DNA from: Carcharhinus amblyrhynchos
Lineage: Eukaryota
Direction of reading: 5' to 3'
Assembly: GCA_965287045.1 (NCBI GenBank)
Contig: OZ336878.1
Coordinates: 53,134,001 to 53,198,000, forward strand
DNA length: 64,000 bases
The translations under genes were made by a program, and so were the position numbers. Below the pieces are notes generated by a model. It was not told the origin of the DNA. It did no database searches and saw nothing but the letters and a program-made list of their open reading frames with translations. Below are positions 18,160 to 48,417 of the stretch, in pieces. Every line of letters begins with the position of its first letter. Positions within the stretch are counted from its first letter, which is position 1.

Positions 18160-18660
18160 CTCAGAATTATTACAGCACAGAAAGAGGCCATTTGTTCCAT
18201 TGTGTCCATGTTGGCTTTGTAAAAGTAGCTCATCTCATCTCTCCACTCCCCTCCCCTGCCTTTTCTTACTATCCCTCCAAATTTTTCTTTTCAGGTGATT
18301 TCCAGTTCTCTTTTGAATAGCACAGAATCTGCTTCTACCAATGGAATTAGAAAATTATCTATGCTGTTATTTATAAAATTCAGGATCCCATATGCTTTAT
18401 TAACTTCTTTCTCAAACTGCCCTCAATGATTTGCGCAGATATACCCCAGATCTCTCTACTCCGCCTTTAGAATTTATTACCACTGACCAAAATGTATCGC
18501 TTCACACTTTCTGCAATAAATTATATTGGCCACATGTCTGCCTATTCCACCAGCCTATGTTATCTTGAAGTTTATCATCATCTTCCATAGTTCACAATAC
18601 TTCCAAGTTTGTGTTATCTGCAAATTTTGAAGGGTCAGTAACCAAAGTACTCAGATTTAA
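18160..18660 (-). mobile_element. Old CR1 fragment
   Basis: KFADNT motif and CR1 tail remnant. Confidence 0.6.
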
Positions 18661-18671
18661 GTATTTGCCTG

Positions 18672-19642
18672 AAGAACACATAAGAAATAGGAGCAGGAGT
18701 AGGCCATCTAGCCCTTCGAGCCTGCCCTGCCATTCAATAAGATCATGGCTGATCTGAAGTGGATCAGTTCCAATTTCCTGCTTTCTCCCCATAACCCTTG
18801 TCTGTCAAAAACCTATTTACCCATGACTGAAATACATTTAGCGAGGTAGCCTCCACCACTTCAATGGGCAGACAATGCCAGAGATTCACCACCCTTTGAG
18901 TGAAGACGTTCCTCCTCAACTCTGCTCTAAACTGACCCCCTCCCCCCACCCCTTATCTTGAGGCTGTGCCCTCTGGTCCTGCTATCCTTTCTAAGCGGGA
19001 AGAATCTCTCTACTGCTGCCCTATCCATCCCTTTCATTATCTTATACGTCTCTATCCCCCCCTCATCCTTCTAAACTCCAGCGACTACAGACCCAGTCTA
19101 TTTAGTCTCTCTTTATAGTCCAACCCCCTCATCTCCGGTATCAGCCTAGTGAACCTCCTCTGCACTACCTCTAAGGCCAAAATATCCTTGCGCAAGTGCA
19201 GCGACCAAAACTGCACACAGTACTCCAGCTGTGGCCTCACCAGGACCCTGTACAGTTGCAGCAAGACCTCCCTGCTTTTATATTCTAGCCCCTTCGCTAT
19301 AAAGGCCAACATACCATTTGCCTTCTTGATCACCTGCTGCACCTGCAGACTGGGTTTTTGCAACACATGCACAAAGACCCCCCGGTCCCTCTGCACTGCA
19401 GCATGCTGCAGCTTTTCTCCCTTTAAATAGTAATCCCTCCTACTATTATTGCTACCAAAGTGGATAACCTCACACTTGCTAACATTGTACTCCATCTGCC
19501 AGGTCCTCGCCCACTCGCTCAGCCTATCCAGATCCCTCTGTAGACTTTCCACACCCGCGCAATTTGCTTTTTCACTCATCTTCGTGTCATCAGCAAATTT
19601 TGTCACCCTACACTCAGCCCCCTCCTCCAGATCATCTATATA
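18672..19642 (-). mobile_element. Young CR1 LINE 3' fragment (RT YIDD to 3'UTR)
   Basis: ORF 19085-19681 YIDDLEEG...KFADDTK...RPQLEYCVQFWS; near-identical to 47430-48417. Confidence 0.95.
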
Positions 19643-20952
19643 AGACATGGAGAATGGACTGAATGGCCTCTTTCTGTGCATTATAATTCTCTCCTTAAAC
19701 CTTTGTCTCTGTAAAATGCTCCTTAAAAATCTATTCCTTGTAATACCCTCACGTGGATTAGAGTTAACTTTTATTTGATGAATCCTGTGAAAAGGCTCGA
19801 GATATTTTACTATATAAAAGGCAGTGTATAAATGCCAGTTGTTACATAATTCTATAAAACACAGTCAGATCGGAATATTTGTAATAGACTTATAACAATC
19901 AACAAAATACTTGGAACATAGAATGAGACTTACTATGATTGCCACGTGCATTGGCATCATAGATGGGAAACTGCTATTTCACTATTCCTAGACAGTTTAA
20001 ACAAACTGCGTGGAAATGTAAACACTAAATCAGGCTCCACAATGCATTCATTATAATAGTAATGATATGGAGTTGCTAGCGTTGGACTGGGGTAGGCACA
20101 GTAATACTGTAACAGTAGATCAATCAATGATATTCTCCCTACGGCAGACAGCTATTTTAAACCATCTGTTATATGTATTGAATTATTTTTGTATGCAGCT
20201 GTCTATCCCACATCCTATCGTAAGCTAAAACTATAGTAGATGAAAAATATTCTCAGAGCAATTTAGCAGTTCTTGTTGTTTCCATGTTATTATACTTAAA
20301 ACCGGACTAACAGCTGCAAGAGACAGTGGGTAATAAACAGCTGAAAAAGTCCATTTAATCCCATAAGTTAGCATTACTTGTAGCGAACAGGGTGCAGCAC
20401 TTGATTACTCCATATGTTGGACATCACAAGCATTGATATGTCTGTATAGCCTCCTCCCTATTCTGTACTTTTCAATACTTAGACTGAAGCCAAATCTTTA
20501 GGCTTTGGTGATATTTAAGAATAACTTAATTTCTATTGTATCCATTAGTACAGTTGTAGTCAGAAATGCTGTTCTAACATGTCTGAGTTTTCATTTGCAG
20601 TCTACTTACAGGTTAATGATATTGCAGTGTCAGGGGCATTTATATATAATTGGAATTATGACGTACAATAAAAAGTTGGGTGTGTAAATCCAGTGTCACC
20701 TGAACATCTGTTTTGTAATCATTCCCAAATATTTGAATGGCCATAAAAACATTTTCAGATGTTAACAGGGACTTTACATAATAAAAGCACTTTTTGTGAA
20801 TGGATGAGTTTAAGAACTATTAGATGCAAATGGCAGAAAATAGAGGTGATTCATGCAGCGGTTTTGCAAGCAGCAGTGTTAACAGTCAGTGAAGAGGCAA
20901 CAGCAGTCTGGCCTTCCATGGCGCATGCTAATACTAATGTATCATTACCAAC

Positions 20953-28479: not shown

Positions 28480-29850
28480 GAATATAGACATCACTGGCAA
28501 GGTCATCATTTCTTGCCCACCCTGAATTGCCATTGAGAATGTGGTGGTGAGCTGCCTTCTTGAACCACCATATTTCAAATGGTGTGGTGCTCCCACTGTG
28601 CTGGCAGTTAGGGAGTTCCAGAATTTTGACACAGCGGCAGTAAAGAAACAGCAATATAGTTCCAAGTCAGGATGGTGCTTTACTTGGAAGAAAATTTGCA
28701 GATGTTGGTATTCCCATATGTTACCTTTGTTCTTCTAGGTGCTAGATGTCACAGTTTTGGAAGATTTTGACGAAGGAACCTTGGTGAGATACTGAAGTGC
28801 ATCTTGTAGATGGTACACACAAAGTGTTGCTATACACTGGTCCTTCATCTTGGGATTCATTCTTGTAAATCTTTTCTGCATCCTCCCTAAATTCTTGATC
28901 ATTCCTAAAGTGTGATGCTCAGAATTGGACACAATACTCCAGTTGTAGTTGAATCAGTGTTCTATAAAGGTTCATTGTAATTTCCATGCTTTTGTATTCT
29001 ACACCTCTATTTATAAAGGCATCCCATATGCCTTTTGAACCACTTTCTCAACTCACCCTGCCATTTACAATTTGTGCACATATGCTCCAAGGTGTCTCTG
29101 TTTTTGCACTGTTGTTAGAAATGTATCTTCTAGTTCATATCGCCTCTTTTTATTCCCCCCACAAAAATGTATCACTTTGCATTTCTCTATAATATTTCAT
29201 CTGCCATGTGTCCATCCATTCCTACAACCTGTCCATGTCCTTTTGAAGTCTATCACCAACATCCCCACAGATTACAATACTTCCAAAGTTTGTATCATCT
29301 GCAAGTTCTTAAATCGTGCCTGTTACATCCAAGTCTAAGCCATTGATATGCATCAAGAAAAGCAGTGGTTCTAGTATCAACACTTGAGTAAATCACTGTA
29401 CACCTCCCTCTTAAATGAAAAACAACCATTCATCACTACTTGTTGTCTGGACTTGACTGAAATTTGTATTCATGCAGCTACTGTTCCTTTTATTCCATAG
29501 GAAACAACTTTGCTGGCAAAATTATTATGCAGCACTTCATCAAACACCTTTTGGAAATCCAGATACACCACATAGGTCCTGTTTCCTCATGAAAAACGCA
29601 ATCAAATTAGTTAAATATGATTTGCCTTTTAACAAATGCTTTCTGGCATTCCTTGATTAATCCACCTTTGTTGAAGTGACTGCTAATTTTGCCCTGGATT
29701 ATCATTTTATCACTGAGGTTAAGCTAATTGGCCTCAATTTGCTAGGTTTATCTTTACACTTTTTTTTGGACAAGGGTGTAACATATGCAATTTTCTGAGT
29801 CATCAACAGTTCCCTGCATCTAAGGCAGATTGCAAAATTTTGATAAGTAC
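28480..29850 (-). mobile_element. Two adjacent degraded LINE fragments (3' tail family at 28480-28840; CR1 RT at 28840-29850)
   Basis: VTPLSKK...RPISLTSV, DFQKVFD and FADDT remnants. The tail segment resembles 38500-39150. Confidence 0.7.
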
Positions 29851-30063
29851 ACCCTAACTCTGCCAATTTCCAATCATATTGCGACCAGAGGGTCAACAAG
29901 TAAGGAGATCGACGCATAGCAGAAACAAAGAACATATTAAATAATGAGACATTGAACAAAGGGATAACTAACAGGCAACTAGATAAAGAACAGGTGAAGA
30001 AATCGTCAAAAGTTTAGTTAATCTAAGGACAGCAAAGAAGTGACAAACAAAGCTATAAATTAC

Positions 30064-30180
30064 CGTGTCGGTCTGATTTATCTTCCATATTAAAATCTTC
30101 CACTGGCGAAGTTGTCTTTGGGTGCAGTTGGAATGGCAGAAATAAACCAGTGTCTCTAACAGGTGGTGATGGCACACAAT
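30064..30180 (-). CDS. PDE4DIP: Myomegalin exon
   Basis: DCVPSPPVRDTGLFLPFQLHPKTTSPVEDFNMEDKSDRH; conserved SPPVRD; 117 nt; phase 1-1. Confidence 0.9.
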
Positions 30181-30961
30181 CTGCAAAGGATTATCAGTGG
30201 AGAAAAGGAGAAAACTGGATATGTATAATTTTCCAATAACAAGATCAACATTTATCTTAATATCATTTATTAGTTGATTTATCGAGAAAGCTTTTAATAA
30301 ATAATTTTTAAGAACGATGCAGGCATCATTAGAGAACTATCAAATTGCCAACTAGTAAGATGTCAATATGGCTAAAAGTTAAAATAATGTGAGATAAGCC
30401 TTTGCTTCAATGGTGATGATCACATTCAGGGCTTGGAATTAATTTATCTTGTAAATTCTAACAGAACAACCAAGTGTTTTCTGGAATAATTTTACTACAA
30501 CTAGGCAACATATCTTGTGCTGTATTACATTATCTTTTAACAAGGGGTGACATCAATTGTGTACATTAATGGGTGTCTTGTAGGTAAGAGTTGAATGCTG
30601 GACTCTGAAGCAGGAAGCTGAGTCAGGTGTATTTACCCAACCTTCGATTGGTTCTTGCTCAGACTGCTACTCAAATTTTGTTTGAAATAAAAGAGAATAC
30701 AGTTGAAGTTGTTGAACTTGAATCTCATCCCTTTGTAGATATTCATGGTGAAACATTAATTACAGCTATGAAGCAGTCTGGTCATTTATCTCACCTTCCT
30801 GGCTGAATATCTTGGATGCCGAATGATTAATGAGATGGGGACAACTGAGTAATTTTAGGAACTTCTTTTCAAGCCCAGTCTTTGTATTTGAGGCTCTCAA
30901 CTGCCAGATTATTTATTTTAGGTAGTTTTGTTACTGTTAGAGTTTCTCTGACTAATTAACG

Positions 30962-31165
30962 TGATGTGGAGTTGCCGGCGTTGGACTGGGGTAGGCACAA
31001 TAAGTAGTCTGATAACATCAGGTTAAAGTCCAACAGGTTTATTTGTTAGCAGAAGCTTTTGGAGCACTGCTCCTTCACTCACCTGATGAAGGAGCAGCGC
31101 TCTGAAAGCTCGTGCTACCAAATAAATCTGTTGGACTTTAACCTGGTGTTGTGAAACTTCTTTCT
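30962..31165. mobile_element. Penelope-like element termini in inverted (palindromic) arrangement
   Basis: Arms at about 31003-31077 and 31087-31161 are imperfect reverse complements; contains a hammerhead core. Confidence 0.7.
31080..31114 (+). ncRNA. Minimal type I hammerhead ribozyme motif
   Basis: CAC-CUGAUGA-A-GGAGC-agc-GCUCU-GAAA-GC-UC-GUG: stem I CAC/GUG, core CUGAUGA and GAAA, stem II, palindromic AGCU in place of stem III. Activity not shown. Confidence 0.6.
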
Positions 31166-31796
31166 GTAATTAACACGAGGCAAGGTTATATGGCATAATG
31201 TGACTTAAGTGATGCCAACCTTTCCCTATATTGAGCAGAGTAACTCTGTCATTTGATAAACCACTGTATTAGCAGAATAAATAATTCTTTTCCAACCAAA
31301 GAACCATGACGATCTGACTGGAAACTCAAGCAGAGATTTAATTAGTTAAGCCACATGGTAACTTCCAGTGCCTTTAGATTACCACAGTATCTATCCTGTG
31401 ATAAGATTTCACATGAAGGCAAGTCTCAATTTTATCAATTGAGATGTGAACTTTAGCTAGTTCATCAATTATACTGGGTACCTGCGATACCTCTATACTT
31501 TAATCACACCAGGGAGCCATCAAAATTGGGCAAAGCAATTTGACATTTACAGGGAGAAATGGAACTGTAAGGAAAATGTTAATCAGTATTTTAAGTTTCC
31601 AATATGAATTAAATTGTTTAACCGTCCTGACCCTTTATGCTCACAAAGGCTTTAGGCTAATTACAGGTGAATTGCTCTTGGTGAAGGAAGTTTGCAGATT
31701 GAGGCTGCCAAACTTCCAGCTCCCATTCAGAGAAAACTGGTAATGAAATGACTGCTAATTCTCCTTTTTAAATATTTCTACTTATAGAATCTTAAG

Positions 31797-33223
31797 ATGT
31801 GGTTCCTATTTTCAAGAAAGGGAACAGGGATAGCCCGGGAAATTACCGACCGGTGAGTCTGACCTCAGTGGTTGGTAAGTTGATGGAGAGGCTTCTGAGG
31901 GACAAGATTTATGAGCATTTGGAGAAGTTTAGAATGATCAGAAATAGTCAACATGGTTTTGTCAAGGGCAGATCGTGCCTTACGAGCCTAGTTGAGTTCT
32001 TTGAGAATGTGACTGAGCACGTTGACGAAGGAAAAGCGGTAGACGTGGTTTACATGGACTTCAGCAAGGCGTTTGATAAGGTCCCCCATGCAAGACTTCT
32101 TGAGAAGGTGAGAGGGCATGGGATCCAGGGGGCTTTGGCCTTGTGGATCCAGAACTTGCTTGCCTGCAGAAGGCAGAGAGTGGTTGTGGATGGGTCTTCT
32201 TCTGCATGGAGGTCGGTCACCAGTGGAGTGCCCCAGGGATCTGTTCTAGGACCCTTGCTGTTTGTCATTTTCATAAATGACCTGGATGAGGAAGTGGAGG
32301 GATGGGTTAGCAAGTTCGCAGACGATACGAAGGTTGGTGGTGTTGTGGTGTTGTGGATGGTCTGGAGGGATGTCAGAAGTTGCAGCGGGACATAGATAGG
32401 ATGCAAGACTGGGTGGAGAAGTGGCAGATGGACTTCAACGCAGATAAATGTGTAGTGGTCCATTTTGGCAGGACCAATGGGATGAGGGAATACAATATCA
32501 AGGGTAGGAGTCTTAGCTGTGTTGAAGACCAGAGGGACCTTGGGGTCCGGGTCCATAGGACTCTTAAACCGGCCTCGCAGGTGGAGGATGTGGTCAAGAA
32601 GGCGTATGGTGTACTGGCCTTCATTAATCGAGGGATTGAGTTTAGGAGTCGGGAGGTAATGCTGCAACTTTATAGGACCCTTGTCAGACCCCACTTGGAG
32701 TACTGTGTGCAGTTCTGGTCGCCTCACTATAGGAAGGACGTGGAAGCTATTGAAAGGGTGCAGAGGAGATTTACAAGGATGTTGCCTGGATTGGGAGGCA
32801 TGCCTTATGAAGATAGGTTGAGGGAGCTGGTACTCTTCTCCCTGGAGAGACAAAGGTTGAGAGGCGACCTGATAGAGGTTTGTAAGATGTTGAGAGGAAT
32901 AGATAGGGTGGATTCTCGGAGGCTATTTCCCAGGGCTGAAATGGTTGCTACGAGAGGACACAGATTTAAGGTGCAGGGAAGCAAGTACAGAGGAGATGTT
33001 AGGGGTAAGTTTTTCACTGAGGGTGGTGAGTGAATGGAATTGGCTGCCGTCAGTGGTGGCGGAGGCAAACTCGCTGGGGTCTTTTAAAAGACTTCTGGAT
33101 GAGTATATGGGATCTAATGGGATTGGGGGTTATAGATAGGTCTATGGCTTAGTAGGTATACAAGTGATCGGCGCAACTAGTGGGCCGAAGGGCCTGTTTG
33201 TGCTGTAGTGTTCTATGTTCTAT
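31797..33223 (+). mobile_element. Young 5'-truncated CR1 LINE with complete RT domain, frameshifted
   Basis: ORFs 31799-32395 and 32353-33033 ([23 protein letters not shown]). An 8-nt tgttgtgg duplication near 32345 breaks the frame; tail ttctatgttctat. Confidence 0.97.
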
Positions 33224-33672
33224 ATAACATGATGGTAAATCATGATAAAATATGCCGTTGTAAGTGTCATGATACAACTGTGCAATTTGTCGAGCATATC
33301 TCTCCATCTCCAACAAAATAGGACCCAACCGAAAGGCTACAATTATTTTCAAGGTATTATCGATAAATACGTTAAGAATACAAAGTTCATAACTGTATTA
33401 ACATTAACTTAGACTTCGTTGGCATGCAAATGATTTAAGTGAATGCTGCTTCAAAATTTTACATTTCAGTTAGAAGCAGAGGAGAATTAAAATAGAAGGA
33501 GAAATTGAGCACGTTCCTCAGCCAATCAAATGAATTTATGGAAATCAAAGCTTTACTCTGACCATTATCTCCCTACCCTAGCCTTTTACTATTCATTAGG
33601 ACACCATACTACTTCTCACTGCATTGACTTTAATCTCTCTTTACTTATCCATTGCATTTCTAATGGTCTCAC

Positions 33673-33900
33673 CCTGGAACACCTGTTTACTATTGTGTTC
33701 ACTGGATGAGGTCAAATGATTGATATTGAGGCTGGCTGGTTGATGTTCATCTATCTGTTCCTTCAGCTGTTTCCGTAGGCAGCCATTGGTGTGGATACTG
33801 TGCTCCAGCTGAATGCGGAGGCTTCTGATTTGTGTCAGGAAATCACTGATGTCAAAGGTGCAGGGCCCGCCACCATGGTGCTGAACATTTCCTGAGTAAA
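33673..33900 (-). CDS. PDE4DIP: Myomegalin exon
   Basis: VYSGNVQHH...IRSLRIQLEHSIHTNGCLRKQL...SKQVFQ; 228 nt; phase 1-1. Confidence 0.9.
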
Positions 33901-35659: not shown

Positions 35660-36296
35660 CTATGGAGTTAAAATAAAACATACAAGTTCAGAACAAATGA
35701 TACTTTCCCTGGTTGAAAATGTTAAAATAACTATTGTTTATGAATATTTTATATGAAGTTGTAAATTTTACTTTTAGCCAAAAACAAAACGACTTGCAGT
35801 GATTGAATAATGTAAAAAAAATTCCAAAATGCTTCACTGAGGACATATGAGGAAAATGTACTTCAATGCAAAGGAGGAGGAATTAGGAAATTTGACTAAA
35901 AACTTGATCAAAGAGATAGGTTTTATGAAGAATCTTAAATGCAATGCAGACACTTTGGGCTAACATGATGACATACAGTGGCATGCTATTACAGTGAACT
36001 CTACCAGATCGAAGGACAAGGACAGCAAAACCACCACCCCCATGTTCCACTCCAAGCTACACACCACCCTGACTTGGAATTATATTGCCCTCTTTTGAGT
36101 CAAAATCCTGGAACTCCCTTTCTAATAGTACTGTGGCTGTTCCTAAATCATATGGCCTACAGCCATTCAAGAACAGGCTGACACCATCTTCTCAAGGACA
36201 AATAGCCACATCCTACGAAGGGATAAAAAAGTATCAATTTTACTAATATAGTTTTGCCAAATTATATATACTGTTCATTCAATGATTTACATTATA

Positions 36297-38097
36297 TATA
36301 AGAACATAAGAAATAGGAGCAGGAGTAGGCCATCTGAACCTTCGAGCCTGCCCCGCCATTCAATAAGATCATGGCTGATCTGTCGTGGTTCAGTTCCACA
36401 TTCCCGCCCTCTCCCCATAACCCTTAATCCCCTCTCTTATCAAAAACCCATCAACCCGCGTCTTAAAATTATTTAGCGAGGTAGCCTCCACCACTTCAAC
36501 AGGCAGAGAATTCCAGAGATTCACCACCCTTTGAGTGAAGAAGTTCCTCCTCAACTCCGTTCTAAACCGCTCCCCCTTTATCTTGAGGCTGTGCCCCCTA
36601 GTCCTACTGTCCTTTCTGAGCAGGAAGAGTCTCTCCACCTCTATCCTATCCATCCCTTTCATCATCTTATATGTCTCAATGAGATCTCCCCTCATTCTTC
36701 TAAACTCTAACGAGTACAAGCCTAGTTTATTCAGCCTCTCCTCATAGCTCAACCCCCTCAACTCCGGCATCAGCCTAGTAAACCTCCTCTGCACTCCCTC
36801 CAAGGCCAAAATATCCTTGCATAAGTACGGCGCCCAAAACTGCACACAGTACTCCAGCTGCGGCCTCACCAATGCCCTATATAGCCGCAGCAAGACCTCC
36901 CTACTTTTATATTCAATCCCCCTCGCTATGAAGGCCAGCATCCCATTCGCCTTCCTGACCACCTGCTGCACCTGCAAGCTGGGTTTTTGCGACTCATGCA
37001 CAAGACCTCGAGGTCCCTCTGCACCATCGCCTGCTGCAGTTTTTCTCCACGTAAGTAATAATCCTTCCTACCATTATTCCTACCAAAGTGGACCACCTCG
37101 CACTTGCCAACATTAAATTCCATTTGCCATTTCCTGGCCCATTCGCCCAGCCTATCTAGATCCTTCTGCAGACTCTCCACACCCTCCGCGCAATTTGCCG
37201 TTCCACCAATCTTGGTGTCATCAGCAAATTTCGACACCATACACTTGGCTCCCTCCTCCAGATCATCTATATAAGTGGTAAATAGCTGAGGCCCCAGCAC
37301 CGATCCCTGCGGCACTCCACTAGTCACCAACCGCCAATCCGAATAGCACCCATTGACCCCCACTCTCTGCCTCCTATTTGACAACCGGTCCTCTATCCAC
37401 GCTAACACCCTACCCCCAACTCCATGTCCCCTGACCTTCTGCAATAACCTCTTGTGAGGTACCTTGTCAAACATCTTCTGAAAATCCAGAAAGACCACAT
37501 CCACCGGCTCTCCTCTATCCACCGCCCTAGACACATCCTCATAGAACTCCAATAAATTTGTCAGACACGACTTCCCCTTAACGAAACCGTGCTACGTCTG
37601 CTCTATCAAGCAATTCCCCTCAAGATGCCTCGCTATTTCCTCCTTGATGACGGATTCTAACATTTTACCTACAACAGACGTCAAACTAACCGGCCTATAA
37701 TTCCCCGCCTTTTGCCTGGCACCCTTCTTAATCAACGGCGTAACATTAGCCGCTTTCCAATCTTCCGGCACTTCCCCGGAATCCAGCGACATCTGGAAAA
37801 TAACCACCAAGGCATCCACTATCACCTCCGCCATTTCTTTCAGAACCCTCGGATGTATTCCATCCGGTCCTGGGGACTTGTCCACAATCAGCCCCTCCAG
37901 TCTGTCGAGCACCGCCTCTCTAGTAACAGTAATGTCATTGAGACCCTCCAGTCCTACCACCTTTCCATCTCTAACACCCGGCAAATTATTCACGTCCTCC
38001 TCCGTGAAGACCGAAACAAAAAAGTTATTCAAGACCTCAGCCATTTCCCCATCCCCTACCACTAAGTCCCCCTTCTCATCCTCTAAGGGTCCAACGT
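36297..38097 (-). mobile_element. Young 5'-truncated CR1 LINE
   Basis: ORFs 37592-38230, 36926-37552 and 36390-37001 give a near-continuous ORF2 ([28 protein letters not shown]); tail tatgttctt. Confidence 0.97.
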
Positions 38098-38499
38098 AGC
38101 AATGCTGGCCGGCATTCATTGACACTTTAAGCAGTTGATTAAGAAATTCCTCAGCCTCTACTTTGTCACAAGCTTGGATCTTGGTGCATGAAGCAAACAC
38201 CCGAATGGAGGTACTCAGTAGCAAACACAAGCCAAAAGTTAAAAGTTGGGATTTTCTAAGGAGCTAGCAAACTTACTGCCTCTAAAGTAACAGATAACAA
38301 ACATTTCTTGAGGTAGTTTTCTGCATTTCTGGCAAAAGTAGAATTACGCCACTTACATTACAGCACAGCCACTCAATTCAGTGAGCCACCAGCAGCAGCA
38401 CACCAAAGTGAATGGAGCAGGGCTTGAGAATAATAAATATCCGTACAAAAGCAAAGTTTGGTATTCTGAAGAAGGAAATTAATAAGAAAGTGCCTGTTA

Positions 38500-43999: not shown

Positions 44000-45215
44000 A
44001 CATTCTAAAAAAAAAAATTCATCCTTATCTCCCAAGGTGAATAGATCCTTTAAAAATGACCAAAAGATTGACGCGGAAGGAAAGATTAGAGTACAAGCGA
44101 AAGCTAGTTTAAAACATAGATAGTAAGAGTTTATATAGCTATATCAAAAAAAATTAGCAAAGTGAGCAATAAAAAGTGAGTCTGGGGAATTAATAATGGA
44201 AAATAAGGAGATGGCAGGTGAATTGTATAGATATTTTGCATTGGTCTTCACCATAGGAGATACAAGTAACTCCCAGAAATAGCTGAAAATCAGTAAATGT
44301 AAGGGAGGAACACAGGAACAGTATAATCACCACGGTGATTTGGGCAGCGTGATGGCCTCACAGCACCAGGGACCCAGGTTTGATTCCTGGCTCTGGTCAT
44401 TGTGTGGAGTTTGCACATTCTCCCCAAACTGTGTGAGTTTCCTTCGTGCGCTCTGGTTTCCTCTCACAGTCCAAAGATGTGCAGGTTAGGTGGATTGACC
44501 ATGCTAAAATTGCCCCTTACTGTCAGGGAGACTGGCTAGGGTGAATGCACGGGGTTGTGGGGATTGGGCCTGGGTGGGATTGTGGTCAGTGTATACTTGA
44601 TGGGCTGAATGGCCTCCTGCTACACTGTAGATTCTATGATTTATGACCAGGGAAATCATACTTAGAAATTGGAACTGTGGGCCAACAGGTCCCTGGGTCC
44701 TGATGGAGTTCAAGTATCTTAAAAGAAGTGGCTAGTGAGATAGTTGATGCATTGGTTTTAATTTTCCAAAATTCCCTAGATTCGATGGAGATGCCATTAG
44801 ATTGGAAAATAGCAGATATAACTTCTTTATTCAAAAGGGAGACAGAAAGCAGAACAATGGGTCAGTTAGCTTAACATCTGTCAAAGCAAAAGGAGATAGA
44901 AGCTATTATTAGGGATATTATAGCAGGGCATTTAGAAATATTCAGGGTCATCAGGCAGAGTTAACATGGTTTTGTGAAAATGAAATCATGTTTGACCAAT
45001 TTATTGGAGTTCTTTGAAGTAATATCTGCTGTGGATAAAGGGGAACCAGTGAATGTGTTGTGTTTAGATTTCCAGAAAGCATTTGAGAAGGTGCTACATC
45101 ATTGCAAAAAATGAAATTTCATAGTGCAGGGGATAACATATTGTAGAGATAGAAAACTGGCTAGCTAACTGGAAACAAGAATAAGTATATGTGGGTCTTT
45201 TTTTGGTTGACAAGG
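44000..45215 (+). mobile_element. Degraded CR1 ORF2 with a V-SINE inserted at 44342-44645
   Basis: Similar to 8200-8870; QHGFVK..SCLTNLLEFF and DFQKAF remnants; SINE B-box and V-domain. Confidence 0.8.
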
Positions 45216-45328
45216 TATAATAAGTACTTTTGTATCATACTTTTTAGAACTTTGGAATGTGCTAAAACACTTCAAACGGTGTTGATAAAATTTGCATTTG
45301 CACGTATCAACACTATAGATGCAGGAAG

Positions 45329-48300
45329 AGTTAGGGATCCTCTTGGAACGAGCAATCATTGTATGGTTGAGTTTTTGATGCAGATGGAAGATGAGAAAGT
45401 AGGGTCCCGAACCTGTGTCCTCTGTTTGAAAAGAGGGGAGTATGATAGGATGAGAGAGGAATTGGCAAATGTAGATTGGGGACGCAGATTGGTTGGTAGG
45501 ACTGCTGAGGAACAGTGGAGGATCTTGGGAAGGACTATTACTTACGGGGCGAAAAACTGCAGCAGGCGACGGTGCAGAGGGACCTCGGGGTCCTTGTGCA
45601 TGAGTCGCAAAAACCCAGCTTGCAGGTGCAGCAGGTGGTCAGGAAGGCGAATGGGATGCTGGCCTTCATAGCGAGGGGGATTGAATATAAAAGTAGGGAG
45701 GTCTTGCTGCAGCTGTATAGGGCATTGGTGAGGCCGCAGCTGGAGTACTGTGTGCAGTTTTGGGCGCCGCACCTGCGCAAAGATATTTTGGCCTTGGAGG
45801 GAGTGCAGAGGAGGTTTACTAGGCTGATACCAGAGTTGAGGGGGTTGAGCTATGAGGAGAGGCTGAATAAACTGGGCTTGTACTCGTTAGAGTTTAGAAG
45901 AATGAGGGGAGATCTCATTGAGACGTATAAGATGATGAATGGGATGGATAGGATAGAGGTGGAAAGACTCTTCCCGCTCAAAAAAGACAGTAGGACTTGG
46001 GGCCATAGCCTCAAGATAAAGGGGGGGCGGTTTAGAACGGAGTTGAGGAGGAACTTCTTCACTCAAAGGGTGGTGAATCTTTGGAATTCTCTGCCCGTTG
46101 AAGTGGTGGAGGCTGCCTCGCTAAATATTTTTAAGACGCGGTTTGATGGGTTTTTGATAGGAGAGGGGATTAAGGGTTATAGGGAGAGGGCGGGAAAGTG
46201 GAACTGAGCAGTGACAGATCAGCCATGATCTTATTGAATGGCGGGGCAGGCTCGAAGGGCTGGATGGCCTACTCCTGCTCCTATTTCTTATGTTCTTATG
46301 TTTAAGAAGATCTTTTTCGGTGCTCAGCAGAAATATATTCCAATGGTAAAGAAGGAATGTAGGAGAAGGGATAACCAGCCATGGCTATCGAAGGAAATAA
46401 AGGACAGTATTAAATTAAAAGCTGATGCATTTAGACTGGCTAAAAGTAGTGGGCGAGTAGAAGATTGGGAGAGGTTTAAAAATCAACAAAGAATGACTAA
46501 GAAGTTGATAAAGAAAGGAAGGATAGACTATGAAGCTAAACTAGCACTAAATATAAAAAAGGACAGTAAAAGTTTTTACCAATATATAAAGAGGAGGCTG
46601 GCTAGAGCGAATGTTGGACCCTTAGAGGATGAGAGGGGGGATTTAGTGGTGGGAGATGAGGAAATGGCGGAGGCCTTAAATAAGTTTTTTGCCTCGGTCT
46701 TCACAGAGGAGGACGCGAATAGTTTGCCGAATATTAAAGATAGAAGGATAGTAGGAGTTGAGGGCCTGAATGCGATTACTGTCACTAGAGAGGTAGTGCT
46801 TGATAGACTAATGGGACTGATGGTGGACAAGTCCCCAGGACCAGATGGAATGCATCCCAGGGTTCTGAAGGAAATGGCAGAGGTGATAGTAGATGCCTTA
46901 GTGATTATTTACCAAACTTCGCTGGATTCCGGGGAAGCGCCGGAAGATTGAAAAACGGCTAATGTTCCGCCGCTGTTTAAAAAAGGTAGCAGGCAAAAGG
47001 CAGGGAATTATAGCCAGTTAGTTTAACGTCTGTAGTTGGAAAAATGCTTGAATCCGTCATCAAAGAAGAAATAGCGAGGCACCTAGAAAAGAATGGTTTG
47101 ATCGAGCAGACGCAGCACGGATTCGTTAAGGGGAAGTCGTGTTTGACGAATTTATTGGATTTCTATGAGGATGTGACTAGTGCAGTAGACAGAGGGGAAC
47201 CAGTGGATATGGTGTTCCTCGATTTTCAAAAGGCGTTTGATAAGGTGCCGCACAAAAGGTTGCTACAAAAGGTTAGGGGGCACGGAGTTGGGGGTAAGGT
47301 GTTAGCGTGGATAGAGGATTGGTTGTCTAATAGGAGGCAGAGAGTTGGTATCAATGGGTGCTATTCTAATTGGCGGTTGGTGACTAGTGGAGTGCCGCAG
47401 GGATCGGTGCTGGGGCCTCAGCTACTTACCATTTATATAGATGATCTGGAGGAGGGGGCTGAGTGTAGGGTAACGAAATTTGCTGATGACACAAAGATGA
47501 GTGGAAAAGCAAATTGTGCAGAGGGTGTGGAAAGTCTGCAGAGGGATCTGAATAGGCTGAGTGAGTGGGCGAGGACCTGGCAGATGGAGTACAATGTTAG
47601 CAAGTGTGAGGTTATCCACTTTGGCAGAAATAATAGTAGGAGGGATTATTATTTAAAGGGAGAAAAGCTGCAGCATGCTACGGTGCAGAGAGACCTGGGG
47701 GTCCTTGTGCATGAGTCGCAAAAACCCAGTCTGCAGGTGCAGCAGGTGATCAAGAAGGCGAATGGGATGCTGGTCTTTATAGCGAGGGGGATAGAATATA
47801 AAAGCAAGGAGGTCTTGCTGCAACTGTACAGGGCACTGGTGAGGCCGCAGCTGGAGTACTGTGTGCAGTTTTGGTTGCTGCACTTGCGCAAGGATATTTT
47901 GGCCTTGGAGGGAGTGCAGAGGTTCAACTAGGCTGATACCGGACATGAGGGGGTTGGACTATGAAGAGAGACTAAATAGACTGGGTCTGTACTTGTTGGA
48001 GTTTAGAAGGATGAAGGGGGATCTTATAGAGATGTATAAGATAATGAAAGGGATGGATAGGGTAGAGGTAGAGAGATTCTTCCCACTCAAAGGACAGCAA
48101 GACTAGAGGGCACAGCCTCAAGGGGGCGGGGGGGGGGGGGGCGGCAGTTTAGAACGGAGTTGAGGAGCAACTTCTTCACTCAAAGGGTGGTGAATCTCTG
48201 GAATTCTCTGCCAGTTGAAGTGGTGGAGGCTACCTCGCTAAATATATTTAAGTCACGGGTAGATAGGTTTCTGGTAGACAAGGGAATTAAGGGTTATGGA

Positions 48301-48417
48301 GAGAAAGTGGGAAAGTGGGAAAGTGGGAAAGTGGAACTGATCCACTTCAGATCAGCCATGATCTTATTGAATGGTGGGGCAGGCTCGAAGGGCTAGATGG
48401 CCTATTCTTATGTTCTT
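45329..48417 (+). mobile_element. Young CR1 LINE (about 2.3 kb of ORF2 plus 3'UTR) containing a nested CR1 3' fragment at about 45526-46300
   Basis: ORFs 45189-45671, 45515-46207, 46238-46951 and 47044-47931; two complete 3' tails at 46300 and 48417. Confidence 0.96.

Follow-up and report, generated by a model that had tools for sequence, protein, structure and literature searches.

A mirror-image stump of a Penelope-like element with a probably inactive minimal hammerhead in a PDE4DIP intron of Carcharhinus amblyrhynchos

The question raised by this locus is whether 35 nucleotides in an intron of PDE4DIP are a real hammerhead ribozyme of a Penelope-like element (PLE), and whether this copy still works. 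The window, i.e., the whole stretch of 64,000 nucleotides that was analysed, belongs to contig OZ336878.1 of Carcharhinus amblyrhynchos. With a probability of roughly 0.85, the locus is a 206-bp mirror-image PLE stump with a target duplication, of which the right arm holds the minimal hammerhead of its family, likely dead and predicted not to cleave. The following features were assigned in the window.

30062 to 30180, minus strand: myomegalin/PDE4DIP exon, downstream of the intron (tblastn, splice joints)
30953 to 30960, plus strand: likely target-site duplication (TSD), left copy, TAATTAAC; the sole repeat of at least 7 bp common to both ends
30961 to 31166, no strand: whole insertion of 206 bp, made of two PLE ends, each 5'-truncated, in head-to-head order (inverted arms, fold, 8-bp direct repeat)
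30961 to 30996, minus strand: PLE tail of about 36 bp, limited to the left arm (aligns to the young copy L093 up to position 1840)
30997 to 31077, minus strand: left arm, an inverted pseudo-LTR (pLTR) end on the gene-sense strand, truncated within the ribozyme (arm alignment)
31070 to 31094, plus strand: junction, with CTCCTTCA and its complement TGAAGGAG separated by a 9-nt spacer (junction pattern, 77 exact matches genome-wide)
31080 to 31114, plus strand: minimal type I hammerhead, predicted cut 3' of C31111, with G10.1-U11.1 and not G-C
31115 to 31166, plus strand: remaining right pLTR end, no tail (AATAAA at 31121-31126, putative role)
31167 to 31174, plus strand: likely target-site duplication, right copy, TAATTAAC (the same 8-bp direct repeat)
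33673 to 33900, minus strand: myomegalin/PDE4DIP exon, upstream of the intron (tblastn, splice joints)

The hammerhead was parsed from its letters. Stem I is CAC/GUG (31080-82/31112-14, 3 bp), and C3-A9, i.e., CUGAUGA, lies at 31083-89 and is followed by a single extra A at 31090. Stem II has 5 bp (31091-95/31099-103) and is closed at the core end by a G-U pair. GAAA is placed at 31104-07, and N17 is C31111, which we take to be C17 under the hammerhead numbering convention. The core (C3-U4-G5-A6-N7-G8-A9, G12-A13-A14-A15.1, U16.1 and H17) is complete. The palindromic 15.1-16.1 segment for a dimer helix III is AGCU at 31107-31110, present family-wide. Helix I is open, with 3 bp here and mostly 5-6 bp in young copies. 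The parse given in the earlier note agrees with the window letters exactly, including the G-U closing pair, where G-C is the family state, and its predicted cut site after C31111 accords with the hammerhead numbering.

With a relaxed minimal-hammerhead descriptor the motif was the sole passing site on both strands of the window, and the same descriptor matched 6 of 200 dinucleotide shuffles. The loose pattern gave 6 matches in the window against 1.9 expected, which is not significant, and the isolated 35-mer did not fold better than its shuffles (z 0.19). The covariance-model check that had been proposed with the motif came out negative, i.e., no hammerhead family of Rfam matched 29000-33000 at E<=10. 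Five sub-threshold Rfam matches in 29000-33000 were dismissed as unrelated. A chance match, or a hairpin that is a host RNA of the miRNA or snoRNA type, would fit the loose pattern not being above chance, and a MIR4221 match exists, although below threshold (28 bits vs 100). However, tens of thousands of homologous copies are tied to a PLE ORF and stem II shows compensatory changes, so the probability left for this explanation is negligible. It was rejected on the family of 48,926 copies and its link to the ORF.

The core pattern was matched 48,926 times genome-wide (24,446 + 24,480 by strand), against 0 for the control, and a 17-mer of the older type was matched 14,763 times. Thirty loci were selected with a ribozyme-free upstream sequence, and the locus of the query itself was left out. 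Of the remaining 29 copies, 26 continue into the ribozyme. Several run back into frames with an RT-thumb, a C-x4-C-x2-C linker and GIY-YIG, the GIY-YIG match being just under the cut-off (E 6e-4); a Pfam search with the decayed 322-aa frame of one locus (L042) gave no match. With the protein of the older copies a young sister subfamily was found, the ORF of which is intact and has 893 aa (RVT_1, E 5e-10). In this subfamily, tandem and inverted pLTRs are 100% identical, and each holds a hammerhead. At the family level the pLTR is joined to a single RT ORF with C-terminal GIY-YIG, and the window locus has no ORF. The PLE-terminal assignment of the earlier note is borne out by this linkage of copies to the RT and GIY-YIG ORF, and the stretch 31080-31114 is, on sequence grounds, a true PLE hammerhead of the minimal type I class.

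The young PLE copies L093 (G000:C23:3616500-3626400), L094 and L095 were recognized, of which L093 has the intact ORF (893 aa) and, in tandem, a second copy that is interrupted by a duplication of 56-57 bp. The family may be active to this day. Between RT and EN, the 893-aa ORF holds the C-x4-C-x2-C linker. A Zn-finger-like CX2-5CxxC linker is described for Neptune clade PLEs, in common with Nematis, in a part of Craig et al. (2021, PMC8557442), and the linker of the shark ORF fits this pattern, which points to the Neptune (or Nematis) clade. Copies of an older variant (L047, L048, L059, L062; run X11 at 31111) have 7 extra bases after the cut site. Judged by its letters, the window subfamily looks like a deletion derivative of the older variant with a shorter stem I.

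The shark family was compared with the metazoan PLE minimal hammerheads as described in portions of Cervera and De la Pena (2014, PMC4209133). Both have a type I core without helix III, an extra nucleotide between A9 and stem II, palindromic 15.2-16.2 and, in the shark family, G10.1-C11.1. They also share the pLTR location, mostly solitary truncated copies, high family variability and opposite-strand pairs 100-700 bp apart. In contrast, the window copy has G-U at 10.1-11.1 and a stem I of 3 bp, and its inverted partner overlaps the hammerhead and is without a core. Sharks are not named in the portions of that text that were covered. No relevant paper on shark PLE hammerheads was found among the papers searched; the supplements of PMC4209133 and of bioRxiv 10.64898/2026.07.22.740005 may list shark motifs.

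The hammerhead seems to be maintained as a structure. A parse was possible for 65 of 69 young loci. In these, variation within the pLTR is greatest in stem/loop II, which is still paired, and the core is near-invariant. In the young subfamily (L064-L137), stem/loop II has several versions that differ in length and sequence, and the rest of the pLTR is nearly the same in all. From the sequences, stem/loop II is a mutation hot spot under pairing constraint. A set of 32 distinct stems II was obtained from 67 position-ordered matches in 60 fetched stretches, chosen blind to stem II. Four pairs were Watson-Crick in 79%, compared with 59% when shuffled (0/5000), with a control that ignores relatedness. 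In alignment A1, i.e., 17 hand-picked copies of equal length, two-sided changes were found in four of the five stem II pairs, again with relatedness ignored. The support from alignment A2, i.e., 13 young copies of the same length, is weaker: one of four pairs changed on both sides, with 3/500 for covariation and 29/500 for two-sided cells, relatedness being ignored. Helix I columns of A1 and A2 are invariant and show no covariation. The covariation that the earlier note had proposed to look for is thus present in helix II, as compensatory changes between subfamilies. Because stem II changes in this compensatory way, we infer that the hammerhead structure was kept under selection, with the signal lying between subfamilies.

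Within the old copies, the majority frequency is 0.94 in the core, 0.92 upstream and 0.87 downstream in 26 of 29 copies (three were dropped for a missing region, and the query locus was left out); the upstream value is inflated by the way copies were picked and the downstream value is deflated by truncated copies. Preferential conservation of the core is a weak test for dead copies, in which the core is just a little better kept than its flanks. Decay within the old copies looks nearly neutral, with core and stem I both kept in 6 of 29. The catalytic core is intact in the window copy, which in view of these 6 of 29 is a point against a dead copy.

The G-U pair of the window can be placed in this decay. 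Position 31103 reads C in 17 and T in 9 of 26 relatives, and position 31104 reads G in 21 and A in 5. Because the pair sits in a CpG with these readings, it is likely due to CpG deamination at C11.1 after insertion. A G-C closing pair occurs in 46 of 50 copies with C at N7 and in 9 of 17 copies with T at N7. A G-U pair at 10.1-11.1 would probably lower hammerhead activity; rates for changes at this pair were not found in the literature checked.

The motif belongs to the right arm of a larger inverted repeat, and the inverted arm, the tail and the target duplication were absent from the earlier note. The arms are 81 nt and 83% complementary, and 31000-31170 folds with -105.9 kcal/mol (z -16.7). 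In the left arm, C3-A6 are missing, A is in place of G12 and stem I is broken. The window tail ends at the position of the ORF start codon in full elements (893-aa ORF start, L093 1840). The first part of the junction also resembles native pLTR sequence, i.e., microhomology. Tandem or inverted pLTRs, a one-sided tail and a TSD, which mark EN+ PLEs, were found at the family level together with the window. No direct-repeat partner was found beside the window hammerhead, its sole neighbour being the inverted arm without a core.

Portions of Craig et al. (2021, PMC8557442) and Arkhipova et al. (2013, PMC3846280) describe EN+ PLE insertions with the same plan, i.e., head-to-head inverted ends, an inverted 5'-truncated pLTR with the tail on one arm (30-40 bp there), a TSD (8-bp and AT-rich here) and a palindrome or microhomology at the junction. 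Unlike in these insertions, the halves in the window have been shortened to about 80-120 bp each, and an ORF is missing between the two. Self-priming was proposed for such inverted junctions (in a part of PMC3846280). Non-LTR retrozymes, i.e., non-coding hammerhead-bearing PLE derivatives present in one chondrichthyan, are head-to-tail tandem repeats according to the covered part of bioRxiv 10.64898/2026.07.22.740005, whereas the window has no tandem array. This class was rejected, as no tandem array or head-to-tail units with hammerheads were found at the window locus. The structural features of the window element all match PLE traits in the published portions covered.

The junction recurs, and the first 30 of its 77 exact matches were examined for arms, tail and flanking repeats. 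The tail was on the left in 13, on the right in 9, on both sides in 1 and partial or absent in 7. Flanking repeats of at least 7 bp were found at 12 of the 30 loci, a rate without a chance control. Two linked sites are subfamily-diagnostic, and the copies differ among themselves at them. At the first site the arms agree in 12 + 11 copies and differ in 3 (p 2e-4; out of 27 rows, one was dropped for a third letter). At the second they agree in 11 + 13 and differ in 1 (p 3e-6; 2 of 27 rows dropped). These data bear on a non-autonomous, MITE-like fold-back family that would have multiplied as a unit from a single master palindrome, to which the 77 identical junctions, the similar total length and the flanking repeats would all be suited. 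Such a family is improbable, however, in view of the agreement of arms within a copy while copies differ, the changing side of the tail and the many other junctions that occur in the family. The 77 insertions likely arose repeatedly, as the letters of their arms suggest. Repeated formation by two cDNAs annealing at native complementarity of 5-7 nt is what we infer. Arm-to-arm gene conversion, or two masters, is possible.

A likely course of events can be proposed for the mirror-image stump. Both nicked target strands would have primed cDNA on uncleaved element RNA in one insertion event. The two cDNAs would have begun at two known RT start sites, with and without the tail, halted near the ribozyme and joined via short built-in complementarity. 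The stump would have decayed afterwards, including loss of the CpG at C11.1. In active elements, the ribozyme lies within the pLTR flanking the RT and GIY-YIG ORF. By analogy with published work on other PLEs, helix III would be formed from the AGCU palindromes of two copies and lead to a cut after N17, probably aided by the element protein.

The covered portions of Frangieh et al. (2024, PMC11167929) report that the ribozyme of Anolis PAc Poseidon is protein-assisted and unneeded for insertion in vitro, that both target strands are primed at an AT-rich target, and that the tail is delimited by two RT start sites. A cleavage footprint was sought in the shark family, in 10,134 young copies of which the downstream part matched exactly. 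Copies without U16.1 numbered 95 (two break positions), against 52 without A15.1 (one position). Among the first 30 of each class, 26 and 24 were truncations, giving about 41 vs 42 truncations per position and no excess at the cut site. This lack of excess fits hammerhead-independent insertion, as in PAc Poseidon (portions of PMC11167929). A difference is that the PAc Poseidon ORF starts inside the ribozyme, whereas in the shark PLE some 90 nt separate the cut site from the ORF start downstream. In five tight fold-backs (L230, L240, L242, L244, L245), one arm starts with the very base that follows the cut site; they are too few to exceed the background. It is tentative, and on balance doubtful, that the ribozyme region itself shapes insertion, i.e., that complementarity at the 5' end anneals opposite-strand cDNAs and yields the recurrent junction with self-cleavage uninvolved.

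Because RNA-type contigs in four of four runs connect 30180 with 33673 and skip a minus-strand GT-AG intron (CT..AC), the motif is intronic and antisense. Along the window, the minus-strand exons match, in their proper order, a catshark Olduvai-domain protein and a further protein, P0002. The flanking exons match P0001 and P0002 (tblastn), and the closest relatives of P0002 are named myomegalin. Some 218 kb past the window, the strand of the host exons has a Cnn_1N exon. Judged by these homologies, the host is shark-like. The antisense position in a PDE4DIP intron that had been given in the earlier note was thus correct. Because the left arm begins after C3-A6, has A for G12 and has a broken stem I, the PDE4DIP pre-mRNA carries, by its sequence, only the antisense of the intact core and a core-less arm.

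Folding predictions were compared for the question of function. The pairing probability of stems I and II is 0.00 in the whole element vs 0.79-0.94 in the bare 35-mer, and 0.87-0.97 in a young native pLTR. The element context does not allow the fold in these predictions, and with 31078-31166 folded alone stem II pairs at only about 0.06. The inverted arm is predicted to sequester the hammerhead in a long hairpin; a plus-strand transcript starting within the junction would escape it. Because stem pairing in context is near zero and the gene-sense arm lacks the core, the window copy is likely inert according to these models, which leave out protein chaperoning. Two copies cofolded without constraint gave a stem II-swapped duplex (-22.1 kcal/mol) and not a helix III dimer. 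A constrained dimer, as a partial model, reached -12.4 kcal/mol.

It is very unlikely that the copy is still an active or co-opted ribozyme, one that in a trans-dimer with another family copy would cut an antisense transcript and so regulate PDE4DIP. The intact core, U16.1-C17 and the 5-bp stem II are what it would need, and family-like RNA contigs are abundant over the stretch (X1 summed depth 25,821), so trans partners may exist. However, this depth belongs to a multi-copy repeat and not to the window locus, the contigs are unstranded, and an antisense transcript at the locus is hypothetical. In addition, stem pairing in context is about 0, the closing pair is a decayed one and there are only 3 bp in stem I. 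Monomeric PLE minimal hammerheads were inactive and dimers cleaved weakly in portions of Cervera and De la Pena (2014, PMC4209133); dimer cleavage by Lunse et al. is treated in a covered part of a review (PMC6765202). A noteworthy or working locus is not supported, i.e., this is a decayed copy in a family of about 49,000, without a direct-repeat partner and predicted to be locked in a hairpin.

The mirror-image stump, likely inert, is the relic of an element type already described and matters little by itself. The family has a bigger meaning. It is partly young, with intact ORFs, and its ribozyme seems to be under structural selection though uncleaved RNA seems to be inserted. It is a large data set for the role of the PLE hammerhead and the origin of inverted PLE ends. 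The roughly 49,000 copies with compensatory stem II variation are a natural mutational scan of selection on the PLE hammerhead.

Other pieces of the same PLE family were found. A longer 5'-truncated end with a tail lies at window 7501 to about 7790 on the minus strand, and its hammerhead is degenerate (GAAU for GAAA, stem I weakened). A tail-only fragment lies at 20063-20104. Elsewhere in the genome (G000:C11:58609775-58609948), a small tandem array holds 4 copies of the ribozyme downstream segment with 49-bp spacing. Repeated RT-like frames at window 31790-33230, 18470-19870, 36290-38270 and 44060-48410 are probably decayed LINE fragments.
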